Shown: positions 13,187 to 64,000, counted from the first letter of the stretch. The stretch is DNA of 64,000 nt from an uncultured Chloroflexia bacterium (GCA_963700285.1 CAVOXA010000015.1:1-64000); one strand, 5' to 3'. The notes: generated from the letters alone by a model not told the origin. Translations and numbers: made by a program.

Positions 13187-14911
13187 ATGTACCATTCTTA
13201 CGATGCAGTCATCGTTGGTGCTGGAGGGGCGGGGTTGCGCGCTGCCCTGGAACTGGGCCAGGTGGGTAGCGTGGCAGTTCTCAGCAAGCTTTACCCGACC
13301 CGGTCGCACACAGGCGCAGCCCAGGGCGGCATTGGCGCCGCACTGGGCAACACCGAGGAAGACCTTGCGGAGTGGCATGCCTTCGATACGGTCAAAGGCG
13401 GCGACTATCTGGTTGACCAGGACGCGGCCGAAGCGATGTGCCAGGAGGCCATCGAGATCGTCTATGAGTTGGAGCACTGGGGCCTGCCCTTTGACCGTAC
13501 GCCAGACGGCAAGATCGCCCAACGCCCTTTTGGCGGCCATACCCACCACTTTGGCCGGGGACCGGTACGTCGTTCGTGCTACGCCGCCGACCGGACCGGG
13601 CACATGATCGTACAGACCATGTACCAGCAGTGCATCCGCCACAACGTCCGCTTCTTTGACGAATACCACGTCCTCGACCTGTTGGTGGAGGATGGCGTGG
13701 CCTGCGGGGTAACGGCCTACCAGATCCTCACCGGCGAGATCCACACGTTCCGGGCCAAGACCATCCTGTTCGCCACTGGCGGCATGGGCCGGATGTTCAA
13801 GATTACGTCGAACGCCCACGCCCTGAGCGGCGATGGCCCCGCCATTGCGCTGCGGCGTGGGATTCCAATGGAGGACATGGAGTTCTTTCAGTTCCACCCT
13901 ACAGGCATATACAAAATGGGTATTCTCATCACCGAGGCGGTGCGCGGCGAGGGGGGTATCCTGCTCAATAGCGAGGGTGAGCGCTTTATGGAGCGCTATT
14001 CGCCCACGCTCCTCGATCTGGCGCCGCGGGACATTGTCTCTCGGGCCATCTACCTGGAGGTGCAGGAGGGCAGGGGGCATGATGGCAAGGACTATGTGAA
14101 CCTCGACGCCAGCCACCTTGGTCGCGAGGTTGTTGAGGCCAAGCTGCCCGACATTGCCGATTTCTGCCTGACCTATCTGGGCATCGATCCGGCCGTCCAG
14201 CCCATGCCGGTGCAGCCCACGGCCCACTATGCCATGGGTGGCATCCCCACTGACATGGATGGCCGGGTGGTCATTGATGATGTGAACACGCCCATGCCCG
14301 GGTTCTACTCGGCCGGTGAGTGCGCCTGTGTGTCGGTGCACGGCGCCAATCGCCTGGGCACCAACTCACTGGTGGACATCCTCGTCTTTGGACGGCGCGC
14401 GGGGCGCGATATGGCCCGCTACATACGCGAGAACGATTTTGTGCCCCTGCCGTCGGAGCCCGAGTGCGATGCCTGCGACGAAGTGGAACACTTGCTCGAT
14501 GGCTCTGGGGACGAAAGTGTGGCGGATATCCGTACAGAGTTGCAGGCGACCATGATGGACAACATCGGTGTGTTCCGCATCGAGAGTCAGATGCAGGCTG
14601 CTGTGGACAGGGTCCACGAGCTGCAGGAGCGGTACCGCCGGGTCAGCATCCAGGATCGGGGCAAGACCTTCAACACCGAGTTGCTGGAAGCCCTGGAATT
14701 GGGCTACCTGCTGGACCTGGCCGAGGTTACAGCCGAGAGCGCCCTGGCTCGCACGGAGAGCCGTGGCGCCCACTCACGGGAGGATTACCCGGAACGGGAC
14801 GATGAGAACTGGCTAAAGCACACGTTGGCCTACCGTACCGAGCGTGGCGTGGAACTCAAGTACAAGCCGGTGGCTATCACACGCTTTGAGCCGAAGCCGA
14901 GAACGTATTGA
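13187..14911 (+). CDS. sdhA: succinate dehydrogenase flavoprotein subunit
   Basis: GAGGAG, RSHTGAAQGG (FAD His), QFHPTG, HYAMGG, HGANRLGTNSL. Confidence 0.97.
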   Translation: MYHSYDAVIVGAGGAGLRAALELGQVGSVAVLSKLYPTRSHTGAAQGGIGAALGNTEEDLAEWHAFDTVKGGDYLVDQDAAEAMCQEAIEIVYELEHWGLPFDRTPDGKIAQRPFGGHTHHFGRGPVRRSCYAADRTGHMIVQTMYQQCIRHNVRFFDEYHVLDLLVEDGVACGVTAYQILTGEIHTFRAKTILFATGGMGRMFKITSNAHALSGDGPAIALRRGIPMEDMEFFQFHPTGIYKMGILITEAVRGEGGILLNSEGERFMERYSPTLLDLAPRDIVSRAIYLEVQEGRGHDGKDYVNLDASHLGREVVEAKLPDIADFCLTYLGIDPAVQPMPVQPTAHYAMGGIPTDMDGRVVIDDVNTPMPGFYSAGECACVSVHGANRLGTNSLVDILVFGRRAGRDMARYIRENDFVPLPSEPECDACDEVEHLLDGSGDESVADIRTELQATMMDNIGVFRIESQMQAAVDRVHELQERYRRVSIQDRGKTFNTELLEALELGYLLDLAEVTAESALARTESRGAHSREDYPERDDENWLKHTLAYRTERGVELKYKPVAITRFEPKPRTY

Positions 14912-51147: not shown

Positions 51148-52794
51148 CTATGCCTCGTACACCCACCGCCCACCGACCATCGTACGCTCGATCGGAATGT
51201 GCACCAGAGATCCAGGGTCCGCGGTCCTTGGATCTGCCCCGAGCACGACCAGGTCCGCCAGCTTTCCAGGTTCCAGGGAGCCCTTCAGCCCTTCTTCGAA
51301 GGAGGCGTAGGCACCATGCAGGGTGCTGACCCGGATCACTTCCTCGACCGTGATCCGCTGGCTCGCGCCCCAGACCTGACCGGTGGTGTCGGTACGCGTC
51401 ACAGCCGATTGTAGCGCCATCATCGGCTCGAAGGGGCCTGGCGGATAGTCCGAGCCCGGAGCAATCATGACCCCCGCGTCCAGCAGGCTGCGCAGGGCGA
51501 ACATGGACTCCAGGCGCTCGGCGCCGTACTCGGACATCTTTTCGCCGTGATAGTAGATGTACGCCCCAAAGGGGGTAGGCACGGCATTCAAGGCCTTGAT
51601 CCGGCGGATAAGCGCGTCGTTGAGCACCGTACAGTGTTCCAGGCGGAAGCGAGGGTCGGTGCGCGGGTATTCGCGCTGCAACCGCTCGTAGATGCGCAGC
51701 ACCATGTCGATGGCCACGTCGCCGTTGGCGTGGACGCCGATCTGCCAGCCGGCCCGGTGAGCCTGGACCGCGTAGCCGTATAGCTCCTCCTCGCCCATGA
51801 CCAGGATGCCATAGTCGTCCGGCCTCCCGGCGTAGGGCTCCGACAGGAGGGCGGTGCGCTCCGAAATCGACCCGTCGCACACGAGCTTCAGCCCGCCCAG
51901 GCGCACCCACGGATCGCCGAAACCGGTACGCAGGCCGGCCTCGAGCATCTTGTGCCAGCGCGAATAGTGGATCATGCAATACACGCGCAGGGACAGCTCG
52001 CCAGCCAGGTGGGCGTCCTGGTAGGCACGCAGATCCTCCGGACTTGCCCACATGTCGTGGGCCGAAGTGATGCCGGCCCGGCTCATCATGCCTGTGATCA
52101 GCTTGGCGGCCGCCTGACCGACGGATCTGGAATAGCTGGTGGGGATGGCTGCCATGAAGGGGTCCATGGCCGTCTCGCACACTCGGCCTGTCAGACGGCC
52201 GCTTCCAGGCTCGCGCTCCAGCCTGCCCCCCGCCGGATCATCGGTTGACTCGACAATGCCAACCCGTTCCAGGGCAAGAGAGTTGACATAGGCCGTATGG
52301 CCACCCCGGTGCAGGACGAGCACGGGATGTCGCGGCGCGGCCGCATCCAGATCGTCGCGCGTGAGAAAGCGGCGCTCGGCCGTCTTGCCATCGTCGTATT
52401 TGAAGCCCTGCACCCACTCGCCTTGTGGGGTGTGTTCCGCCCGGCTGCGCAAGGCCCTCTGTATCTCGGCTACAGAGGGGAGGGCGCAGTCCACACAGCG
52501 CAGGTGCATCAGGCCGGCATAATTCAGGTGGCAGTGCGCGTCGACAAAGCCAGGGACGACCGTCCGGCCACCCAGATCGAGCTGCCGCGTGCCGACAGCG
52601 GCCAGGGCCCGGACGCTGGCGTCGTCGCCAACGGCCCAGATCCGGTCGTCCAGCACGGCCAGGGCCCGGGCGCGCGGCTGCGCGGGGTTGACGGTCAGAA
52701 TGTCCGCGTTGTACAGGATCAGTTGTGGCCCCCGCAGCGACAGCGATGGGCCTGCCGGGCCCACAAGCCTCTGGCGTGGCTCAGCCTGTGCCAT
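51148..52794 (-). CDS. amidohydrolase 3 family (YtcJ-like)
   Basis: PGFVDAHCH, LK...DGS, HANGD.AI, RLEHC, GSDYP, KGSLEPGKLADLVVL. Confidence 0.92.
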   Translation of the reverse strand: MAQAEPRQRLVGPAGPSLSLRGPQLILYNADILTVNPAQPRARALAVLDDRIWAVGDDASVRALAAVGTRQLDLGGRTVVPGFVDAHCHLNYAGLMHLRCVDCALPSVAEIQRALRSRAEHTPQGEWVQGFKYDDGKTAERRFLTRDDLDAAAPRHPVLVLHRGGHTAYVNSLALERVGIVESTDDPAGGRLEREPGSGRLTGRVCETAMDPFMAAIPTSYSRSVGQAAAKLITGMMSRAGITSAHDMWASPEDLRAYQDAHLAGELSLRVYCMIHYSRWHKMLEAGLRTGFGDPWVRLGGLKLVCDGSISERTALLSEPYAGRPDDYGILVMGEEELYGYAVQAHRAGWQIGVHANGDVAIDMVLRIYERLQREYPRTDPRFRLEHCTVLNDALIRRIKALNAVPTPFGAYIYYHGEKMSEYGAERLESMFALRSLLDAGVMIAPGSDYPPGPFEPMMALQSAVTRTDTTGQVWGASQRITVEEVIRVSTLHGAYASFEEGLKGSLEPGKLADLVVLGADPRTADPGSLVHIPIERTMVGGRWVYEA

Positions 52795-52842
52795 ACTCAC
52801 CTCCTGCAGCAAAAGGTCGGGACCTTGGGCCCGTCAGGATCG

Positions 52843-54220
52843 CTACTCCGGAACAGGCAGGATCAGGCCCCTGTCCATCAAAAAGTGGGTCATGTCCTGA
52901 GCCTGCCGGATCATCTGCTCTGCCCTGCCCAGCAACTCGCCCCGGGAGAGCTTCAGGCGCGCAACGCCTTGCTCCTGCGCCTTCACGTCCGACGGCCGCC
53001 GCCTGCCGGGCAAAGACTGCCCGGTCCTCAATGGTCGGGATGATATGCTCCGCATCGAGTCCCTTTTCCTGCTGGTAGCAGGCCAGCTCCTCGGCGGCCG
53101 CGATGGCCATCTCGTCGGTGATGGTCCGCGCCCGCACGTCCAGCACGCCCCGGAAGACGCCGGGAAAGACCAGCGAGTTGTTGATCTGGTTGGCAAAGTC
53201 GCCCCGGCTCGTGCCCACCACGCGCGCCCCGGCCTCCTTTGCCTCCCAGGGCCAGATCTCGGGGATAGGATTGGCCAGCGCAAAGACGACGGCATCCTCG
53301 GCCATGGCCGCGACCCATTCCGGCCTGAGGGCGCCGGGACCCGGCCTGCTGGCGGCAATGCACACGTCGGCGCCGCGTATGGTCTCGGCCATGCCGCCCC
53401 TCCGGCCCTCCGCGTTGCTCTGCAGGCAGATCTGCCACTTGCCCGCGAATTCTTCCTGACGTTGTTCGATGTCCTGGCGTTCCGGGTGCAGGATGCCCTG
53501 GCTGTCGCAGACCACAATGTCGCCGTAGCGTACCCCGCTAGCGAGCAACAGGGGGATGAGGGGCACGTTGACCGCCCCGGCGCCGATCAGCGCGACCCGG
53601 ATCTCGTCAAAGCGCTTGCCAACCACGCGCAGGGCGTTGATCAGCCCGGCCAGGATGACCGTCGCCGTTCCCTGCTGGTCATCGTGCCACACCGGGATGC
53701 GAAAGTCGGGATCGGCGCGCAGCGCGTCCAGGACCCGGAAGCACTTGGGCTGGGAGATGTCCTCCAGGTTGACCCCGCCAAAGGAGGGCTGGAGCCATTT
53801 GGTGGCCTGCACGATCTGGTCCGGGTCCTTGGTGTCCAGGCAGATGGGAACCGCGTCCACCCCGCCCAGGTACTTGAACAGCAGCGCCTTGCCCTCCATC
53901 AGCGGCAGCCCGGCTCCCCCGAGGATCTCCGGCTCGGTGAACCCCACCTGGAGGCCCTGCACCCGGGTGCTGTCGGAGACTACGGCCACCGTGTTGCCCT
54001 TGTTGGTATACTCGTAGGCCAGGTCCTCGTTTTCCTGGATGGCCCGGCAGGGCGCGGCCACGCCAGGCGTGTACCACACCGCAAAGTCGTCCACGACGTC
54101 GTGAATGGGGCACTTGGGCGCCATCTGCACCTTGCCCCGGTACAGCGGATGGAGGCGCATGGCGTCTTCACCCGGTTTCCTGGCCTTGGCCAGCAGTTGT
54201 TCCTCGGACATCACAGCCAT
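52843..54220 (-). CDS. NAD(P)-dependent malic-enzyme family protein, variant (frameshift near 52988)
   Basis: WYTPGVA, MEGKALLFK, NLEDI, HDDQQGT, GAGA, FALANP.PEI, NQINNSLVFPG. Confidence 0.9.
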
Positions 54221-54366
54221 CCGGCTACGGCTCCTCTCCACGATTCCACAGGTACCCTGGGTTTCCAGGTCGCGCCGCAGGTCCGCCCGCGCCCAGCTAC
54301 AACCTTGCGATGGTAGCCGGCGGGTTGGCCTGGTTCTCTTCTGGGGCGATGAGGGCGCCCGCGTGC

Positions 54367-55668
54367 TCAGCCCGACGGCAGACTTTGGTCCGCGATCTCC
54401 AACACCTCGTCGATGATGCTCAGGCCATCACGCAGCTCGGTCTCGCTGATGCATAGCGGCGGCGCGACAAAGATCAGGTTGGCCGGGAAGAAGGTGGACA
54501 GCCCCCGCTCGCGGCACAGCTTGGCCAGGGGAGCCGTGGGCATTGGTTCCTTGGTCTCCCGATCCACCACCAGCTCGATGGCCGCGAACAGTCCGATATA
54601 CCGCACGTCCCCCACCGAGGGGTGCCGGGCCTTGAGCTCCTCGAGTTGCTCACCCAAGACCACCCCCAGCCGGGCCGCGTTCTCGATCAGCCCGTCGTCG
54701 TGGTAGACCTGCAAAGTGGCAACCCCCGCCGCGCAGCTCAAGGGGTGCGCGCTGTAGGTCAGGCCGCAGTAGAGCATCCTGTCCTCAAAGTACTGGGCCA
54801 TGGGCTCTGAGACGATGACGGCGGCCAGCGGCACATACCCCGCTGTCAGACCCTTGGCCGTGGTGATCATATCGGGCACCACGTCCCAGTGGTCCACCGC
54901 GAACCAGGTGCCCGTCCGGCCAAAGCCGCTCATCACCTCATCGGCGACGAGGAGGATGCCATACTTGTCGCACAGCGCGCGCATGCGCGGCCAGTAGTCA
55001 TCTGGCGGAACCAGGATCCCGTTCGTGCCGGTCACCCCTTCCAAAAAGATGGCCGCCACGTTGTCCGGACCCTCAAACTTGATGACATCTTCGATGTGGG
55101 TGACGCACTCCCGGTGGCACGTGTCCGGCGTCCACCCAAACGGACAGCGATAGCAATAGGGGTCAAAGACGTGGATCACGCCGGGGATGGTGGGTTCGGC
55201 CGCCCAGCGCCGGTGGTCGCCGGTCAGGGCGATGGCGCCATGGGTCGCGCCATGGTAGGACCGGTAGCGGGCCAGGATCTTGCGCCGGCCGCTGTACATC
55301 CGGGCCAGCTTGATGGCGTTCTCGTTGGCCTCCGCGCCGCCCAAACAGAAGAACGACTTTTGCAGGTTTCCCGGCGCGACCTCGGCCAGCATCTGCCCGA
55401 GCCGCGCCCTGGGTTCGGTCACGGCGCTGGGCTGGGCAAAACAGAGTACGTCCGCCTGGTCCTTGATGGCCTGCACCACCTTGGGGTGCTGGTGCCCGAT
55501 GTTCAGGTTTATCAGTTGGGACGAAAAGTCGATGTAGCGCTTGCCATTGGAATCCCAATAATAGACCCCTTCACCCCGGACCATAGGGATGGGATCGACC
55601 GTGGATTGAACGGACCAGGAGAACAGCGTATAGTCCCGGCTCAACCCGATAATCTCAGCAGCGTCCAT
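54367..55668 (-). CDS. class III (omega-amino acid) aminotransferase
   Basis: YIDFSSQL, GGAEANE, SYHGAT, ADEVMSGFGRTG, TTAKGLT (PLP Lys), GLTYSAHP. Confidence 0.92.
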   Translation of the reverse strand: MDAAEIIGLSRDYTLFSWSVQSTVDPIPMVRGEGVYYWDSNGKRYIDFSSQLINLNIGHQHPKVVQAIKDQADVLCFAQPSAVTEPRARLGQMLAEVAPGNLQKSFFCLGGAEANENAIKLARMYSGRRKILARYRSYHGATHGAIALTGDHRRWAAEPTIPGVIHVFDPYCYRCPFGWTPDTCHRECVTHIEDVIKFEGPDNVAAIFLEGVTGTNGILVPPDDYWPRMRALCDKYGILLVADEVMSGFGRTGTWFAVDHWDVVPDMITTAKGLTAGYVPLAAVIVSEPMAQYFEDRMLYCGLTYSAHPLSCAAGVATLQVYHDDGLIENAARLGVVLGEQLEELKARHPSVGDVRYIGLFAAIELVVDRETKEPMPTAPLAKLCRERGLSTFFPANLIFVAPPLCISETELRDGLSIIDEVLEIADQSLPSG

Positions 55669-55788
55669 GGTTTCGGCTCCTTTTGGAGAAAAGATATGCC
55701 TGGACGGGAACCCGCCAGCTCCCATCCAGGTTCCAGCCTACATCAGATCTCACTGCCCGGCCAGGATCCGGGCCCGCCAGGCCAGCCC

Positions 55789-57154
55789 TCAGGCAAACTT
55801 GAGGCCGTAGCCAGCCAGCTCTCCTTTGACCCTACCGTAGAGGTCGACGTATTCCTGGCAGGGCTCGATGGAACCCCAGTCGTGGCTCTCTTGGAAGGGC
55901 GTGCCCTTGGGTGGATCGAGCAGCCGGTCCTCGTACTTGGGCAGCAGCTTTCCGACAATCTCGTTGGCCTCCACCCGGCTCAGGCCAGCGGCAGCATGGG
56001 CCACCTCAGAGGCGAAACGAGGCTCCACCGGGCTGAGGTGATCGACGTTTCTGGCGGCGCCCACCCCGCCAAACTCGATGTTGCCCCCGGACACGACGCC
56101 GGTGATCATGCCGGTGGCGATCTCGTAAAAGTTCATCTCCGTCATCGGGCCCGCCGCACAGTAAGTATACCACAAATGCGGCATGTGATTGTTGCGGCTG
56201 ATAGCCTGTGTGGCCAGGCTCTGCGTCCACAAAAGCTGCTGGTTGCTGTTCCAGCCGCGCAGGTGCAAGGGGAAAGTGAGGTGGACGGATGCTCTCAGAA
56301 CCAGGATGGAGTAGAGCAGGTAGGCCGTGCTGACCACGGCCACCCCCTCCGGCCCTCCGGCAAAGCCGCCCAGAATCGGCCCGCATTCCCCAATGAGCTG
56401 GCCGCCACGGGCAAGAATGTAGGCGACCTCGTTCAGCCGCTGGAACGACACCTTGAACTCGGCCGCAAAACCGACGACCCAGCAGTCGGAATCCCGCAAC
56501 CCAAACTCGCTGCCCGTGATCTTGCCCGCATCGGTGACCGCCGTCGAGATGGAGTTCATGATCGGCAGGCCGGGCCGCTGGGCGCGGCGAAGCGCAGCGC
56601 GTCCAAGCTCGACGGCCCGGATGCAAGCCAGCAGTTCCAGGGGCGACCCTGCGCGCGTGGACATGCCATTGATGGTCGCCAGGTTCGGGCACGTGACCGA
56701 GTTCGGCCAGCGGATTGCGGCCGTAGCCCTCTACCAGGCGCACGTACACATCTTCGGTGCTGCACGTCGCCCCGCCTGCTCCCAAAAAGCACCAGGGTTC
56801 GACGCTGCTCTCTGGTTTCCGGCCCAGCATCGCCTTGCGGTCCCGCCCCTCCCCGAACACCGGCGCCCTGGGCGCGTCCCGCAGTCCCTCCAGCAGTTCC
56901 TCTTTGGTGAAGCGTATGACCCGGCTCGTGTCCGTGCAGTAGCAACCCGTTTCCGCGCACAGCTCCAGCGCCGCCTGGAACAGGTCGTCGGCGAGCTGGT
57001 CGTCGTTTGGCACGGAAGTCCCGGGGTCGAAGCGGATGCCATACTTTTTGACCACCTGCCGCAGCTTGGGGACCACGACCTTCATGTCAAAGTCCCGCTC
57101 CGAGTAATAGGGACCGTTCAACGCCCGCCTGATCACCTCAAAGAAGTCTATCAT
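55789..57154 (-). CDS. mtmB: monomethylamine:corrinoid methyltransferase (MtmB) family, non-pyrrolysine, paralog 2 (one extra base near 56705)
   Basis: Colinear with the upstream paralog. LADDLFQAALEL...G.YC.DT.R.I.F, GSPLE, RPGLPIM, GG.AGGPEG, PPKG..F.E. One extra G restores the frame. Confidence 0.85.
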
Positions 57155-57164
57155 CTCTCCTCCT

Positions 57165-58532
57165 CTACTTGAACCTCAGGCCATAGCCGGCGAGTTCGTC
57201 CTTGATCTGTCCATAAAGGTCCAGGTATTCCTGGCGCGGCTCGATGGAGTCCCAGTCATAGCATTCGGGAAACTTCCTGCCTTTGGGCGGGCTGGGCAGC
57301 CTGTCCCGGTATTTGGGCACCAGCTTCTTGACCATTTCATTCGCCTCGGCGCGGCTCAGGCCTGCTGTGGCGTGGGCGACCTCCGAGGCGAACCTGGGCT
57401 CCAGGGGGGTGAAGGTATCGAGGCTGATCGCCTTGGCCACGCCGCCAAACTCGATGTGGCCACCAGAGGCCACCCGCCCTATCTGGGTGGCAGCGATCTC
57501 GTAGAAGCACATGTCGGTCATCGGTCCCGCGGCCAGGTAAGTGAGGTTCAGCATCGGCAGGTGGCTGTTGCGGCAGATGGCCTGCGTGCTGACATTGATG
57601 GGCCACATGATCTCCCAACTGGTGTTGCAGCCATATCGAAAGTCCATGGGAAAGGTCAGGTGCGCGGAAGCCCGGAGCACCAGGATCACCAGCAGGTGAT
57701 AGGCCACGTTGCTCACCGCCACACCCTCGGGACCGCCCGCATAGCCGCCCATGATCTCACCGGTCTCACCAACGATCTGCCCTCCCCGGGCAGTGACGTA
57801 GGCGACCTCGTTCAGCCGCTCGAAGGGTACCTGGAGCGGGGAGGTGAAACCGATGACCCAGCCATCGCTGTCCCGCAGGCCAAACGCGCTCCCCGTGATC
57901 TTGCCGGCCGCGGTGACCGCCGTGGCGATGGAGTTCATAATCGGCAAGCCGGGCCGCTGTGCCCGCCGCAACGCGGCTCGGCCCAGCTCGACGGAGCGGA
58001 TGCAGGCCAGCATCTCCAGGGGTGAGCCGGCCACCACCTCCATGCCGTTGATCATGGTCAGCGTGGGACAGGTCACCGAATTGATCAGCGGGTTGCGCCC
58101 ATAGCCTTCAACCAGGCGGACGTACACCTCCTCGCTGGATGAGATGCCACCGCCCGCCCCCAGAAAGCAGTAGGGGGGATCGGCGCTCTCCGGCCTTCGG
58201 GCCGGCATGGCTTTCCTGTCACGTCCCTCTCCGAACACCGGGCTGGCAGGTGCGTCCCTCAAAGCCTCGCGGAGCTCTTCTTTTGTGAAGCGAATGATGC
58301 GGGAAGTGTCCTTACAGTAGCAGCCGACTTCCGCGCACAGCTCCAGGCCGGCCTCCCACACGGCATCCGCCAGGTCATCGTCGCCGGGCACCGGCGTTTC
58401 GGGATCGTAGCGGATGTTGTACTTTTTGATCAGCTCCCTCAGTTTGGGCACCAGGATCTTGATGGCAAAGTCCTGCTCAGTGGAGTAGGGACCGTCCAGC
58501 GCGCGCCTGATGATCTCAAAAAAGTCGATCAT
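57165..58532 (-). CDS. mtmB: monomethylamine:corrinoid methyltransferase (MtmB) family, non-pyrrolysine, paralog 1
   Basis: 455 aa. DLADAVWEAGLEL..EVG.YC.DTSRII.FT.EE, AGSPLE, RPG, GGYAGGPEG, AGPMTDMCFYE, LE.RF, PPKG.KF.ECYD. No in-frame TAG. Confidence 0.88.
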   Translation of the reverse strand: MIDFFEIIRRALDGPYSTEQDFAIKILVPKLRELIKKYNIRYDPETPVPGDDDLADAVWEAGLELCAEVGCYCKDTSRIIRFTKEELREALRDAPASPVFGEGRDRKAMPARRPESADPPYCFLGAGGGISSSEEVYVRLVEGYGRNPLINSVTCPTLTMINGMEVVAGSPLEMLACIRSVELGRAALRRAQRPGLPIMNSIATAVTAAGKITGSAFGLRDSDGWVIGFTSPLQVPFERLNEVAYVTARGGQIVGETGEIMGGYAGGPEGVAVSNVAYHLLVILVLRASAHLTFPMDFRYGCNTSWEIMWPINVSTQAICRNSHLPMLNLTYLAAGPMTDMCFYEIAATQIGRVASGGHIEFGGVAKAISLDTFTPLEPRFASEVAHATAGLSRAEANEMVKKLVPKYRDRLPSPPKGRKFPECYDWDSIEPRQEYLDLYGQIKDELAGYGLRFK

Positions 58533-58547
58533 TTGCTCTCTCCTTTG

Positions 58548-59201
58548 CTAGCGGTCCACGAGTTTGAGGGCCAATGTCACCGCCCCGCTGGCTGTCTCAG
58601 CGTAGCCGTCGGCGCCGATCTTGTCGGCCCATTCCTGGGTTACTGGCGCGCCGCCCACCATGACGGCATACGTTTCTCGCTCGCCCACGTCTCGAAGCAG
58701 GTTGATGACATCCCGCTGTCCAGGCATCGTCGAGGTCATCAGGGCGGATATGGCAATGATGTCAACCTTGCGCTTTCTCGCCTCCTCCAGGAACGTGGTC
58801 GCGGCCACATCCTCGCCCAAGTCGTACACCCTGAAGCCGGCCAGCTTGAACAGCATGGTCAAGATATTCTTCCCGATGGTGTGAATATCGCCCTTGGCCG
58901 TTCCGATGAGGACGGTTCCGGGCACGCCAGCGTCCTGCCCCGCGGCGGCCATCGCCGGCTCCAGCACCTCCATGACCCCGTTGCCGGCCTCGGCAGCCAT
59001 GATCATCTCTGGCAAAAAGACCTCGAGGCGTTCGAATTGCTCGCCGACAATGCGCAGACCATCGCGCAATCCCGTCTCCACGGCCTCCATGGGCGAGATT
59101 CCGGCATCCAGACAGCGCTGAGCCGCCTGCCTGGCGCCCTCCTCGTCGCCCTCAATGACGGCCCGTTGGAGCGCTAGCAGTAGATCACTTTTGTTGGTCA
59201 T
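58548..59201 (-). CDS. cognate corrinoid protein (MtmC/MtbC/MttC-like)
   Basis: N-terminal cap, FLPEMIMAA, GDIHTIGKN (DxHxxG), SALMTST, VMVGGAPVT..WA.KIGADGY. Confidence 0.93.
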   Translation of the reverse strand: MTNKSDLLLALQRAVIEGDEEGARQAAQRCLDAGISPMEAVETGLRDGLRIVGEQFERLEVFLPEMIMAAEAGNGVMEVLEPAMAAAGQDAGVPGTVLIGTAKGDIHTIGKNILTMLFKLAGFRVYDLGEDVAATTFLEEARKRKVDIIAISALMTSTMPGQRDVINLLRDVGERETYAVMVGGAPVTQEWADKIGADGYAETASGAVTLALKLVDR

Positions 59202-59674
59202 TGTGAGATTCTCCTTTCATTGAGTTCCATCTTTATGAATGTCTTCCTGGTACAGCACCCTGGCGTACACCAGGCACGTCTCACAGGCTGGTCATGCTGC
59301 CATTCGCCCGGCGGCATGGACTGCAAGCCCCCGCGCGGCATCAAAAAGCCCAAGGAGGAAACCAAAAGAGGATGTCGAACCGGCGTCTCGCACAGATGGA
59401 CAACTGGCAGGCCCAAGCCCAGAACCCGATAGGCCAAGCCCTTCGGCCACGACCAGCCTATCACGGCAGCCAGATCCAGGGCCGGCAGTCCGTCCGCGTT
59501 TGCGCCCCGACCTGGATTCTAGCACAGCTCCAGGGTCTTGTCAACGAAGCCAAGGCCGCGCTTGCCTGCGACCCGCCGTTCGAACCGCGTGACGATCGTC
59601 TGGTACACCAGCCACCGGCCACCCAGGTAGGCCCCCAAGAGTGCCAGGCCCATCGCGGTCGAGTGGGAGAAGCC

Positions 59675-60790: not shown

Positions 60791-61177
60791 ATGTACACCC
60801 TCGATGCCAGCGTCCACGTCAGCGCCCTGAATCCCTACGAGCCCGAGTCCGGCGCCAGTCAGGCCCTGCTGCGCCTGCTTCACCAGCGCCAGATCCCGCT
60901 CTTCTGCCCGACCCTGCTGCCTGTCGAAGTGGCCGCTGCGATCGCCCGCAGGATGGACGATCCCCATCGGGCCGTGGCCCTGGCCGCCCTCATCCGCAGT
61001 TGGCCCCACCAAACCCTGCTGCCCCTCGACGGCGCCCTGGCGGATTGCGCCATCGCGCTGGCAGCCGGCTTGCGGCTGCGAGGCGCCGACGCGGTCTATG
61101 CCGCCGTAGCCCAGCAGGCCGGTTCCACCCTGATCACCCTCGACCGCCAGCAGTTGGAGCGGCTCCGCCCGAGGTGA
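60791..61177 (+). CDS. vapC: VapC/PIN-domain toxin
   Basis: YTLDASV, PTLL.VEVAAA, LRGADAVYAAVA, LITLD..Q. Confidence 0.88.
   Translation: MYTLDASVHVSALNPYEPESGASQALLRLLHQRQIPLFCPTLLPVEVAAAIARRMDDPHRAVALAALIRSWPHQTLLPLDGALADCAIALAAGLRLRGADAVYAAVAQQAGSTLITLDRQQLERLRPR

Positions 61178-61306: not shown

Positions 61307-64000
<2,694 letters not shown>

Follow-up and report, generated by a model that had tools for sequence, protein, structure and literature searches.

What can a tandem pair of MtmB-family methyltransferases be doing in a bacterium when neither paralog carries pyrrolysine (Pyl)? The question is raised by an operon in the 64,000-nucleotide stretch analyzed here (the window, G000:C15:1-64000), which belongs to the 7.05-Mb, 89% complete assembly of an uncultured Chloroflexia bacterium. 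Six closely spaced genes, all on the minus strand, encode in order a corrinoid protein, two MtmB homologs (B1 and B2), a class III aminotransferase, a malic-enzyme variant, and a YtcJ-like amidohydrolase (Table 1); gene calls and profile matches bore out this order and these families, which had first been given in a reading made from the sequence alone (the sequence-only reading). Throughout, G numbers denote genomes (G000 is the host), C numbers denote contigs, and L numbers denote MtmB-bearing loci. As judged from sequence, the operon may carry out the anaerobic, successive B12-dependent demethylation of a dimethyl or monomethyl omega-amino acid, followed by transamination, aldehyde oxidation, and oxidative decarboxylation, a reading that we would accept or doubt with about equal readiness.

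Both paralogs are MtmB homologs with methionine at the pyrrolysine site

B1 matches PF05369 over positions 1-450 (E 1.7e-92, 311 bits) and B2 matches it in two halves (104 and 177 bits), against a cut-off of 25, so that membership in the MtmB family, a point set beforehand as a test, held for both paralogs. B1 aligned full length with MtmB of Methanosarcina barkeri (1L2Q; E 3.9e-62), with Met199 falling on the X (Pyl) of GMGVXG, and an AlphaFold model of B1 (pLDDT 93.1) reached a TM score of 0.95 to 1NTH, 1L2Q, and 1TV2; of the checks that the sequence-only reading had proposed, the alignment put methionine on the Pyl position, and the model showed a matching barrel fold. Both genes have ATG there, at exactly the coordinates first claimed (Table 1), and MtmB without pyrrolysine is what the locus encodes. 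The methionine is present in 32 of 32 B1 sequences and 31 of 32 B2 sequences, and a profile search of the host genome (89% complete) with PylB and PylS models returned weak matches far below the cut-off and none above it, with the M. acetivorans control passing.

Compared with MtmB/MtmC of M. barkeri (1NTH, 1L2Q), the pair shares the fold (TM 0.95; rmsd 1.8 Å; 30% identity), equivalents of Glu259 and Tyr335, and an adjacent cognate corrinoid gene but has Met for Pyl202, no amber codon, and a host in which this search found no pyl genes. Glu229, Glu259, and Gln333 of MtmB are presumably active-site residues; in the alignment, Glu259 is kept as Glu256, Glu229 is replaced by Val226, and Gln333 is replaced by Leu330 in B1 and by Tyr in B2.

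The host has a third, distant non-Pyl MtmB (34% identity; G000:C10:182340-183730, L066), which lies between corrinoid and MttB genes and has FGGY kinase, aldolase, and FAD/CCG oxidoreductase genes downstream. A hidden Pyl codon in this gene was considered and rejected, as its TAG lies ~18 residues before the Pyl site and is accompanied by a frameshift.

B1 and B2 are sister clades that differ at predicted pocket positions

A homolog search with B1 returned two bands, 73-96% and 62-70% identical, and in a tree of 118 MtmB sequences B1 and B2 formed sister clades of 32 sequences each (FastTree support, 0.98 and 0.90, jointly 0.985). Both clades keep Met199-Asn200, Glu256, and Tyr332, and fixed differences between them are found at positions 232, 300, 329-330, and 366-367. 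Position 232 is Pro in 32/32 B1 sequences versus Glu in 32/32 B2 sequences, position 300 is Tyr in 32/32 versus a gap in 32/32, position 329 is Asn in 32/32 versus Trp in 21/32, position 330 is Leu in 30/32 versus Tyr in 32/32, and position 367 is Lys in 31/32 versus Ala in 32/32. Two residues kept in the outgroup have been dropped, a Glu (232) in B1 and a Lys (367) in B2, and B2 has gained Trp and Tyr. Because these positions lie near Glu229-Glu235 and Gln333 of MtmB in sequence, we infer that they line the pocket. An ESM Atlas search returned MtmB clusters only.

The complementary loss of Glu232 from B1 and Lys367 from B2, together with tandem pairing in 11 of the 15 groups of loci described below, would also suit an arrangement in which B1 and B2 are subunits of one hetero-oligomer that performs a single demethylation, whatever the substrate. 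A modeled B1-B2 complex, with chain 2 taken from the relative at L021, gave an ipSAE of 0.82 versus 0.00 for the best control (contacts agreeing to at least 98% between runs; partner pLDDT of at least 91), a mark reached by 51 of 78 solved complexes and by 2 of 108 mismatched pairs. However, the modeled interface is a symmetric two-fold one that is equally open to a homodimer, close cousins pass too, and the pass may reflect memory of the solved MtmB structures, so that the model makes a heterodimer possible and goes no further. In L025, L035, L053, and L081, other genes directly follow B1 and B2 is missing, and in L032/L095 there is a B2 but no B1. Because four loci carry B1 without B2, two independent enzymes are favored, and we regard the single hetero-oligomer as rather unlikely.

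The pair itself has been duplicated: in L026 (3615-10544), L084, and L093, two complete corrinoid-B1-B2 modules, their pocket residues diverged, stand in tandem before one aminotransferase and an aldehyde:ferredoxin oxidoreductase (AOR). In L140, an open reading frame (ORF) of the dimethylamine methyltransferase family (MtbB, PF09505; 4353-5396, 348 aa) directly follows a sister-clade MtmB.

An omega-aminotransferase and an AOR recur beside the pair

Loci with called genes comprised 45 genome loci, 68 metagenome loci (from the best 80 of 400 matches), and loci from an earlier genome search; representatives of the gene clusters were annotated. Thirty-nine of these carry B1 or B2 and fall into 19 groups at 95% identity, of which 4 that end at the MtmB gene were dropped, leaving 15 informative groups. 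The corrinoid gene is present in 14 of the 15, B2 with B1 in 11, a class III aminotransferase in 8, AOR in 8, MoaD/ThiS and MttB genes in 6 each, a DXR-like oxidoreductase and a galactonate-dehydratase-like enolase in 4 each, the malic variant and an iron-dependent alcohol dehydrogenase (Fe-ADH) in 3 each, and a YtcJ-like gene in none. The closest MtmB relatives are on Anaerolineae/Chloroflexota records, where the tandem pair recurs, and the host probably belongs there too. The sequence-only reading had made its proposal depend on conservation of the cluster elsewhere; neighborhood analysis showed conservation for the corrinoid gene, the MtmB pair, and the aminotransferase but not for the amidohydrolase.

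The operon's aminotransferase scores 552.7 bits against NF004718 (PRK06062; cut-off, 472), and its closest solved relative is the taurine:2-oxoglutarate aminotransferase (Toa) of Bifidobacterium kashiwanohense (6JIX; E 9.6e-117, next best 2.4e-87), to which the pyridoxal phosphate (PLP) lysine aligns in the motif TTAKG. A Trp and an Arg that we take to bind the distal anion in Toa are kept. A taurine transporter and a sulfoacetaldehyde reductase were not found beside the operon's gene. These likenesses suggest that the substrate may be an omega-amino acid or a sulfonate; the polyamines that had also been proposed are less likely than omega-amino acids, given that the closest solved relative is a taurine enzyme. 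Orthologs 74-75% identical directly follow the pair in L024, L078, L092, L102, and L124 and lie one gene further on in L101. In 5 of the 8 groups with an aminotransferase, it is at least 60% identical to that of the window, and L097 adds one seen by tblastn only. The host has ~21 class III aminotransferase matches in 7.05 Mb (tblastn), and a chance neighbor within 3 kb would therefore be about a 1% event. The coupling to an omega-aminotransferase that the sequence-only reading had proposed is thus supported, with class III genes in 8 of 15 groups; the AOR, which relatives place in the operon, is a step that it had missed. The host encodes an AOR elsewhere in its genome, a 73% ortholog of the one in the malic-variant locus L088.

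Because several aminotransferase subfamilies and AORs of three clades occupy the one slot next to the pair, the arrangement speaks for conservation of the chemistry, from amine through aldehyde to acid, more than for a frozen cassette. The same variety among neighbors could be taken to mean that the operon is a loose catabolic island, in which the corrinoid/MtmB substrate is unlike that of the aminotransferase or the methyl donor is an O-, S-, or halide compound. In keeping with such an island, the operon lies between pieces of yjbQ and has a G+C content above that of the DNA just downstream; no B1 ortholog was found in the congeneric genome G001 (90% complete); and the protein whose level rose most when strain DCMF was given dichloromethane was a non-Pyl MtmB (PMC9768040). 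The distribution of close B1 orthologs is patchy: they occur in 6 of 400 other genomes of the class (E 1e-150), 1 of 22 other genomes of the order, and 5 of 14 in family f44. The independent recruitment of aminotransferase subfamilies and of three AOR clades next to the pair and its sister clades, however, argues for a functional link through amine and aldehyde, and we consider the loose island quite improbable.

Two other aminotransferase neighborhoods deserve mention. In the host, a 63% paralog of the operon's aminotransferase (G000:C6, L070, 7069-13078) has as neighbors an agmatinase, two saccharopine-dehydrogenase-like genes, a cyclodeaminase, and a YtcJ-like hydrolase, possibly a polyamine route. 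At about 386400-396800 on G000:C14 (L150), a methylaspartate-ammonia-lyase-like gene, a beta-keto acid cleavage enzyme, a class III aminotransferase, MttB, MmgE/PrpD, and a zinc-dependent alcohol dehydrogenase occur together; in L023/L088/L090, a 64% ortholog of this lyase is encoded upstream of the pair.

The malic enzyme is a distinct variant that travels with the pair

The malic variant keeps both malic domains and the YTPG, GKA, LED, and DDQQG motifs, but its canonical GTRVLGLGDIG loop is replaced by STRVQGLQVG plus an insertion. The RVQGLQVG loop is present in 30 of 30 variant sequences (the 26 best-scoring database clusters and 4 locus proteins), and RVLGLG(D/N)IG is present in 93 of the 94 next malic matches; further fixed changes in the variant lie near the GAGA and NNSL motifs. 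In human ME2, the active site is closed by the Arg165/Leu167 loop, which moves when malate binds (PMC7847962, PMC12523003), and we infer from the motifs that the variant loop corresponds to it. Orthologs 75-83% identical adjoin the pair in L086, L087/L021, and L088, so that the claim of a malic-enzyme variant was borne out, as a distinct clade that accompanies the pair. In genome G022, the variant is extra, since an ordinary malic enzyme is encoded there too; in the host, the variant is the sole malic match. Across 401 genomes of the class, the DNA pattern of the loop gave the window and four chance matches in nonmalic genes; it did not match in any of the six other genomes of that sample with B1 and so provided no independent contexts. 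The malic variant and the DXR-like gene (3 and 4 of 15 groups) never occur together, but this apparent exclusion was set aside, since chance would give it about 1 time in 3.

A three-carbon skeleton would offer another role for this enzyme. N-methylated beta-alanine, derived from beta-alanine betaine, would be converted to malonate semialdehyde, and the part of the malic variant would be either to provide pyruvate for the transamination as the amino acceptor or to decarboxylate the semialdehyde. Single-MtmB sister clades mostly have an aminotransferase together with methylmalonate-semialdehyde dehydrogenase (MMSDH), which adjoins MtmB in the sister-clade loci L052, L054, L061, L103, L111, and L128 and follows the pair and aminotransferase in L086 (TIGR01722 above cut-off); a beta-alanine aminotransferase with a malonic semialdehyde dehydrogenase is a known pairing (PMC7332683). 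However, MMSDH is found in just 1 of the 15 pair groups, the host has no tblastn match to it at E 1e-5 and a single distant match of the aldehyde-dehydrogenase family, the supply of pyruvate alone leaves the rebuilt malic loop unexplained, and the closest solved aminotransferase is named for 2-oxoglutarate. Counted as one form of the overall omega-amino acid reading, the N-methyl-beta-alanine route seems to us unlikely.

The corrinoid protein and a predicted sink for its methyl group

An MT1-type methyltransferase gene and its cognate corrinoid gene adjoin, so that the first two parts of a three-component system are present. The corrinoid protein scores 214.4 bits against TIGR02370, just under the cut-off of 215.3, and orthologs 71-79% identical stand ahead of the MtmB pair in relatives. 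A cobalamin riboswitch precedes the corrinoid gene in L022 and L086, 2 of the 12 relative loci scanned with Rfam (3 of 15 were left out for size), in line with the B12 link drawn by the sequence-only reading. A riboswitch in the window's own leader was considered and rejected: Rfam returned none there (one chance-level atpB match), and the leader is a decayed gene remnant. The part of it at 59500-59385 matches a fragment between the MttB and corrinoid genes of L088 (5066-5178) and possibly derives from a sensor or regulator gene. In L078, a hybrid kinase/AraC regulator stands at the position of the remnant. The promoter match in Table 1 lies ~315 nt upstream of the corrinoid gene, inside the decayed remnant, and is one of 5 such matches found versus 2.0 expected. 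Terminator-like sites numbered 4 versus 6.0 expected in shuffles, a count that is not significant; the hairpin after B2 is possibly a partial terminator or an RNA-stabilizing element.

Outside the window, the host has Wood-Ljungdahl genes (acetyl-CoA synthase, formyltetrahydrofolate synthetase [FTHFS], carbon monoxide dehydrogenase [CODH], and corrinoid Fe-S subunits) and, by tblastn, homologs of a pterin-binding methyltransferase and of a RACE-type activator; these genes provide a ready sink for a methyl group carried by the corrinoid protein. The host also has 34 MttB and 14 AOR matches (tblastn), and NCBIfam gave no substrate-specific assignment for 15 neighboring or own-genome MttBs. One MttB gene without an internal stop, in L077, contains an Rfam PYLIS_3 match above the gathering score (14210-14309), which is probably a plain coding likeness.

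A candidate pathway and its substrate

In the pathway that we propose, an MttB-type enzyme encoded elsewhere would take the first methyl group from a betaine. B2, with its gained aromatic residues, would then demethylate the tertiary amine, and B1 would do the same for the secondary amine. Both would pass the methyl group to the Co(I) corrinoid protein, from which the pterin-binding methyltransferase, whose gene the host has, would hand it to tetrahydrofolate and the Wood-Ljungdahl pathway. The Toa-like aminotransferase would convert the resulting primary amine to an aldehyde, the AOR, which is in the operon in relatives and elsewhere in the host, would yield the acid, and the malic variant would oxidatively decarboxylate it.

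Norcarnitine is the foremost single substrate candidate, since its skeleton uses all of these steps most simply, and we advance it tentatively, at well below an even chance: 4-dimethylamino-3-hydroxybutyrate would give 4-amino-3-hydroxybutyrate, malic semialdehyde, malate (the D-form if derived from L-carnitine), and pyruvate. Aerobic L-carnitine breakdown yields D-malate (PMC11353897), and D-malate from carnitine could explain the rebuilt malic pocket. The full degradation of carnitine without release of trimethylamine (TMA), with a malic-family enzyme switched to D-malate, is a consequence that we put forward with similar reserve. Within the same overall reading, substrates of the 4-aminobutyrate/5-aminovalerate type seem less probable than either norcarnitine or N-methyl-beta-alanine, and N-methyltaurine seems very improbable.

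A number of observations weigh against this pathway or its norcarnitine form. We know of no D-specific malic-family enzyme, and the known decarboxylation of D-malate is the work of another family. The malic variant is present in just 3 of 15 groups, and of its loci L087 has no aminotransferase and L088 has a transposase-like ORF in its place. The aminotransferases of L022 and L035 are of another subfamily (33-35% identity), the three AOR clades are unrelated to one another, and the MMSDH of L086 points to a three-carbon skeleton. HypD (trans-4-hydroxy-L-proline dehydratase) is linked to B1 in L053, L025, and L027, a choline dehydrogenase homolog lies near the cluster in L022, L053, and L077, and in L024 the pair is accompanied by an FAD oxidase that is nearer to alkyl-dihydroxyacetone phosphate (DHAP) synthase than to 2-hydroxyacid dehydrogenases. 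The transporters near the pair are peptide-type or branched-chain-type ABC transporters, with none of the carnitine type identified, and norcarnitine would not account for the neighboring genes for a sugar-acid dehydratase-like enzyme, an FGGY kinase, and a DXR-like enzyme. All neighbor counts are conditional on retrieval of the loci through MtmB, and single-linkage grouping at 95% merged some loci of unlike context. Finally, the sole characterized non-Pyl MtmB, MtqB, favors quaternary amines (choline, 42; quaternary methylamine [QMA], 37; and monomethylamine [MMA], 11 nmol/min/mg, with none for TMA; PMC13044021).

The MtqB precedent (PMC13044021) suggests a different substrate series, in which choline or dimethylethanolamine would be demethylated to ethanolamine (or oxidized to glycine betaine/sarcosine), with transamination to glycolaldehyde and oxidation to glycolate to follow. 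The Fe-ADHs near the cluster in L022 and L077 score above the GbsB choline dehydrogenase cut-off, L053 has a homolog, and the host has an 84% ortholog; a GlcD-like FAD oxidase and electron transfer flavoprotein (ETF) genes follow the AOR in L024 and L092, and glycerate kinase and enolase genes adjoin sister-clade MtmBs. Against this series, the Trp and Arg of the Toa-like aminotransferase are kept, presumably for a distal anion, which ethanolamine does not have; the pair is 30% identical to Pyl-MtmB, no closer than most of the family; and two additional steps would be needed before the malic variant. We consider it about as unlikely as the beta-alanine route.

The HypD link suggests instead that B1, and perhaps B2, demethylates cyclic imino acids, namely the N-methyl-4-hydroxyproline and N-methylproline that MttB-type enzymes would leave behind after acting on betonicine and stachydrine, with the aminotransferase and malic genes serving later or separate steps. 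B1 is directly followed in L053 by HypD (NF043068 above cut-off) with its activase and in L025 by the activase, and in L027 a C-terminal fragment that matches lies ahead of the cluster; an ortholog of HypD, 78% identical, is encoded in the host, the pair has cyclodeaminase-family genes after it in L026, L077, and L079, and a proline-racemase-family gene lies near a sister-clade MtmB in L137. The three HypD-linked genomes are, however, all in family f44 and may reflect inherited synteny, HypD is not near the operon in the host, and the arrangement with omega-aminotransferase and AOR is commoner, which makes a proline-type substrate a shade less probable than the choline series.

Some neighborhoods contain genes of a further kind. 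In L024 (11391-16044), L092, and L102, the AOR is followed by the DXR-like oxidoreductase (PF21135; closest solved, 3UPL), the alkyl-DHAP-synthase-like FAD oxidase, and ETF genes, and in L021/L087 an FGGY kinase is encoded upstream. These genes may prompt the idea of a substrate that is ether-linked or polyhydroxy, for instance the head group of a betaine lipid.

Layout and integrity of the locus

TABLE 1 Features of the operon and its flanks in the window
Feature	Coordinates	Strand	Evidence
Sigma-70-like promoter match, TTGACA-17-TAGAAT, 11/12	59516-59544	minus	Motif scan
Corrinoid (B12-binding) methyl-acceptor protein, 217 aa, DIHTIGKN motif (D-x-H-x-x-G)	59201-58548	minus	PF02607+PF02310
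MtmB1 (B1), non-Pyl MtmB homolog, 455 aa, intact, Met199-Asn200 at Pyl site	58532-57165	minus	PF05369
ATG (Met199) at position of Pyl UAG codon, B1	57938-57936	minus	Sequence and alignment
MtmB2 (B2), non-Pyl MtmB homolog, ~454 aa, 69% identical to B1, frame split	57154-55789	minus	Two PF05369 halves
ATG (Met) at Pyl position, B2	56559-56557	minus	Sequence and DNA alignment
14-bp hairpin with T-rich tail, between B2 and aminotransferase	55730-55699	minus	Terminator-site scan
Class III PLP omega-aminotransferase, 433 aa, PRK06062 subfamily	55668-54367	minus	PF00202, NF004718
Malic-enzyme variant, STRVQGLQVG loop plus insertion	about 54220-52843	minus	PF00390+PF03949
YtcJ-like Amidohydro_3 metal hydrolase, 548 aa	52794-51148	minus	PF07969

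Two genes of the operon are broken in the assembly by single bases that the sequence-only reading, otherwise right in its list of genes, had not noticed. In MtmB2, one extra base near 56704-56705 breaks the frame, and in the malic-enzyme gene, one extra base near 52986 moves the true C terminus to another frame. Short-read contigs do not have the base at 56704/56705 in 3 of 4 runs, and one of these contigs, 234 nt long, shows no other difference from the window; the base at 52986 is absent from a short-read contig in 1 of 4 runs (179 nt, one other difference), the support in each case being one contig per run at a depth of 2.4-3.5. Orthologs of both genes are unbroken, those of B2 being up to 89% identical over the C-terminal half, and of the 42 genes of the assembly in which a frame change could be tested for, 6 are split by one. 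Because near-identical short-read contigs do not have the extra base, both breaks are most likely assembly errors; on the strength of these contigs and of the unbroken orthologs, a pseudogene reading of the two genes was rejected.

The amidohydrolase matches PF07969 (E 4.4e-99; solved relative, 3ICJ), and six paralogs, 30-38% identical, are encoded elsewhere in the host genome. Homologs 31-33% identical occur near more distant MtmBs in L036 and L065, but no YtcJ-like gene adjoins the pair in any of the 15 informative groups, so that amide hydrolysis, which had been proposed as the first step, has no conservation behind it and the enzyme is probably peripheral to the system.

Copies of yjbQ (UPF0047) surround the operon, all on the minus strand: a 57-nt 5' remnant upstream (59731-59675), a whole gene directly downstream (51081-50662), and two 3' remnants further downstream (47712-47416 and 44505-44449). 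They are 78-91% alike, the G+C content is 64-67% in the operon versus 52-58% just downstream, and it looks as if cassettes have been repeatedly inserted at yjbQ. On the plus strand, a helicase-like gene in many short frames occupies 61307-64000, near a PIN-domain gene at 60791-61177; the helicase label comes from motifs seen by eye, and two pieces have no Pfam match.

Relation to known systems

The view that non-Pyl MtmB has no established substrate is out of date. MtqB of Methanococcoides methylutens Q3c methylates cob(I)alamin from choline and tetramethylammonium and weakly from methylamine, and the same paper labels non-MtqB, non-Pyl MtmB branches "of unknown function" (PMC13044021). Like the published MtqB/MtqC, the present system has an MtmB-family protein without pyrrolysine whose gene adjoins its own corrinoid gene; it differs from that description in being bacterial, in having two tandem paralogs, in the carbon-skeleton enzymes of its operon, and in its methyl sink, which is coenzyme M for MtqB/MtqC and here would be tetrahydrofolate and the Wood-Ljungdahl pathway.

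MtyB, MtcB, MtpB, and MtgB of Eubacterium limosum and Desulfitobacterium (PMC8604678) likewise carry out Pyl-free corrinoid N-demethylation into an acetogenic pathway, but they are of the MttB family, and MtyB takes the first methyl only, whereas a dimethyl compound, the kind of product MtyB leaves, is proposed as substrate for the pair. The product of MtyB, 4-dimethylaminobutyrate, is not used by the enzyme, the monomethyl form gives <1% activity, and the fate of 4-dimethylaminobutyrate and of norcarnitine is stated as unknown (PMC8604678). The end section proposed here, malic semialdehyde to malate to pyruvate, resembles that of the oxygen-dependent, trimethylamine-cleaving route, which has NAD enzymes; here, stepwise demethylation, transamination, and AOR with a malic-family enzyme would take their place.

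No description of the B1/B2 pair, of an operon of MtmB, aminotransferase, and AOR, or of an enzyme for the proposed anaerobic removal of the last two methyl groups and the breakdown that follows was found in the literature searched, which leaves most subscription papers outside its coverage. The arrangement is real, conserved, and undescribed, and it belongs to a kind of system that is already known. That pyrrolysine has been lost is by itself no longer a surprise; the specialized pair, the malic variant, and the link to a recognized gap in betaine breakdown are a testable lead.

Significance

Pyl-free MtmB homologs form 360 clusters at 50% identity (E up to 1e-30), a large family with one described function, and the characterized Pyl-free MttB enzymes take the first methyl of a betaine (PMC8604678). 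If the proposed pathway is true, amines below the quaternary level would be efficiently demethylated without pyrrolysine, betaine osmolytes would have a trimethylamine-free sink in anoxic habitats, and a role would be assigned to uncultured acetogen-type Anaerolineae. If the more tentative norcarnitine form is true, tertiary and secondary amines would have a corrinoid enzyme that works without pyrrolysine, and the malic variant would be of a new stereospecificity; it is conceivable, on the same guarded terms, that the pair completes what MttB-type enzymes begin and so provides the missing anaerobic route for carnitine to pyruvate without the release of trimethylamine.

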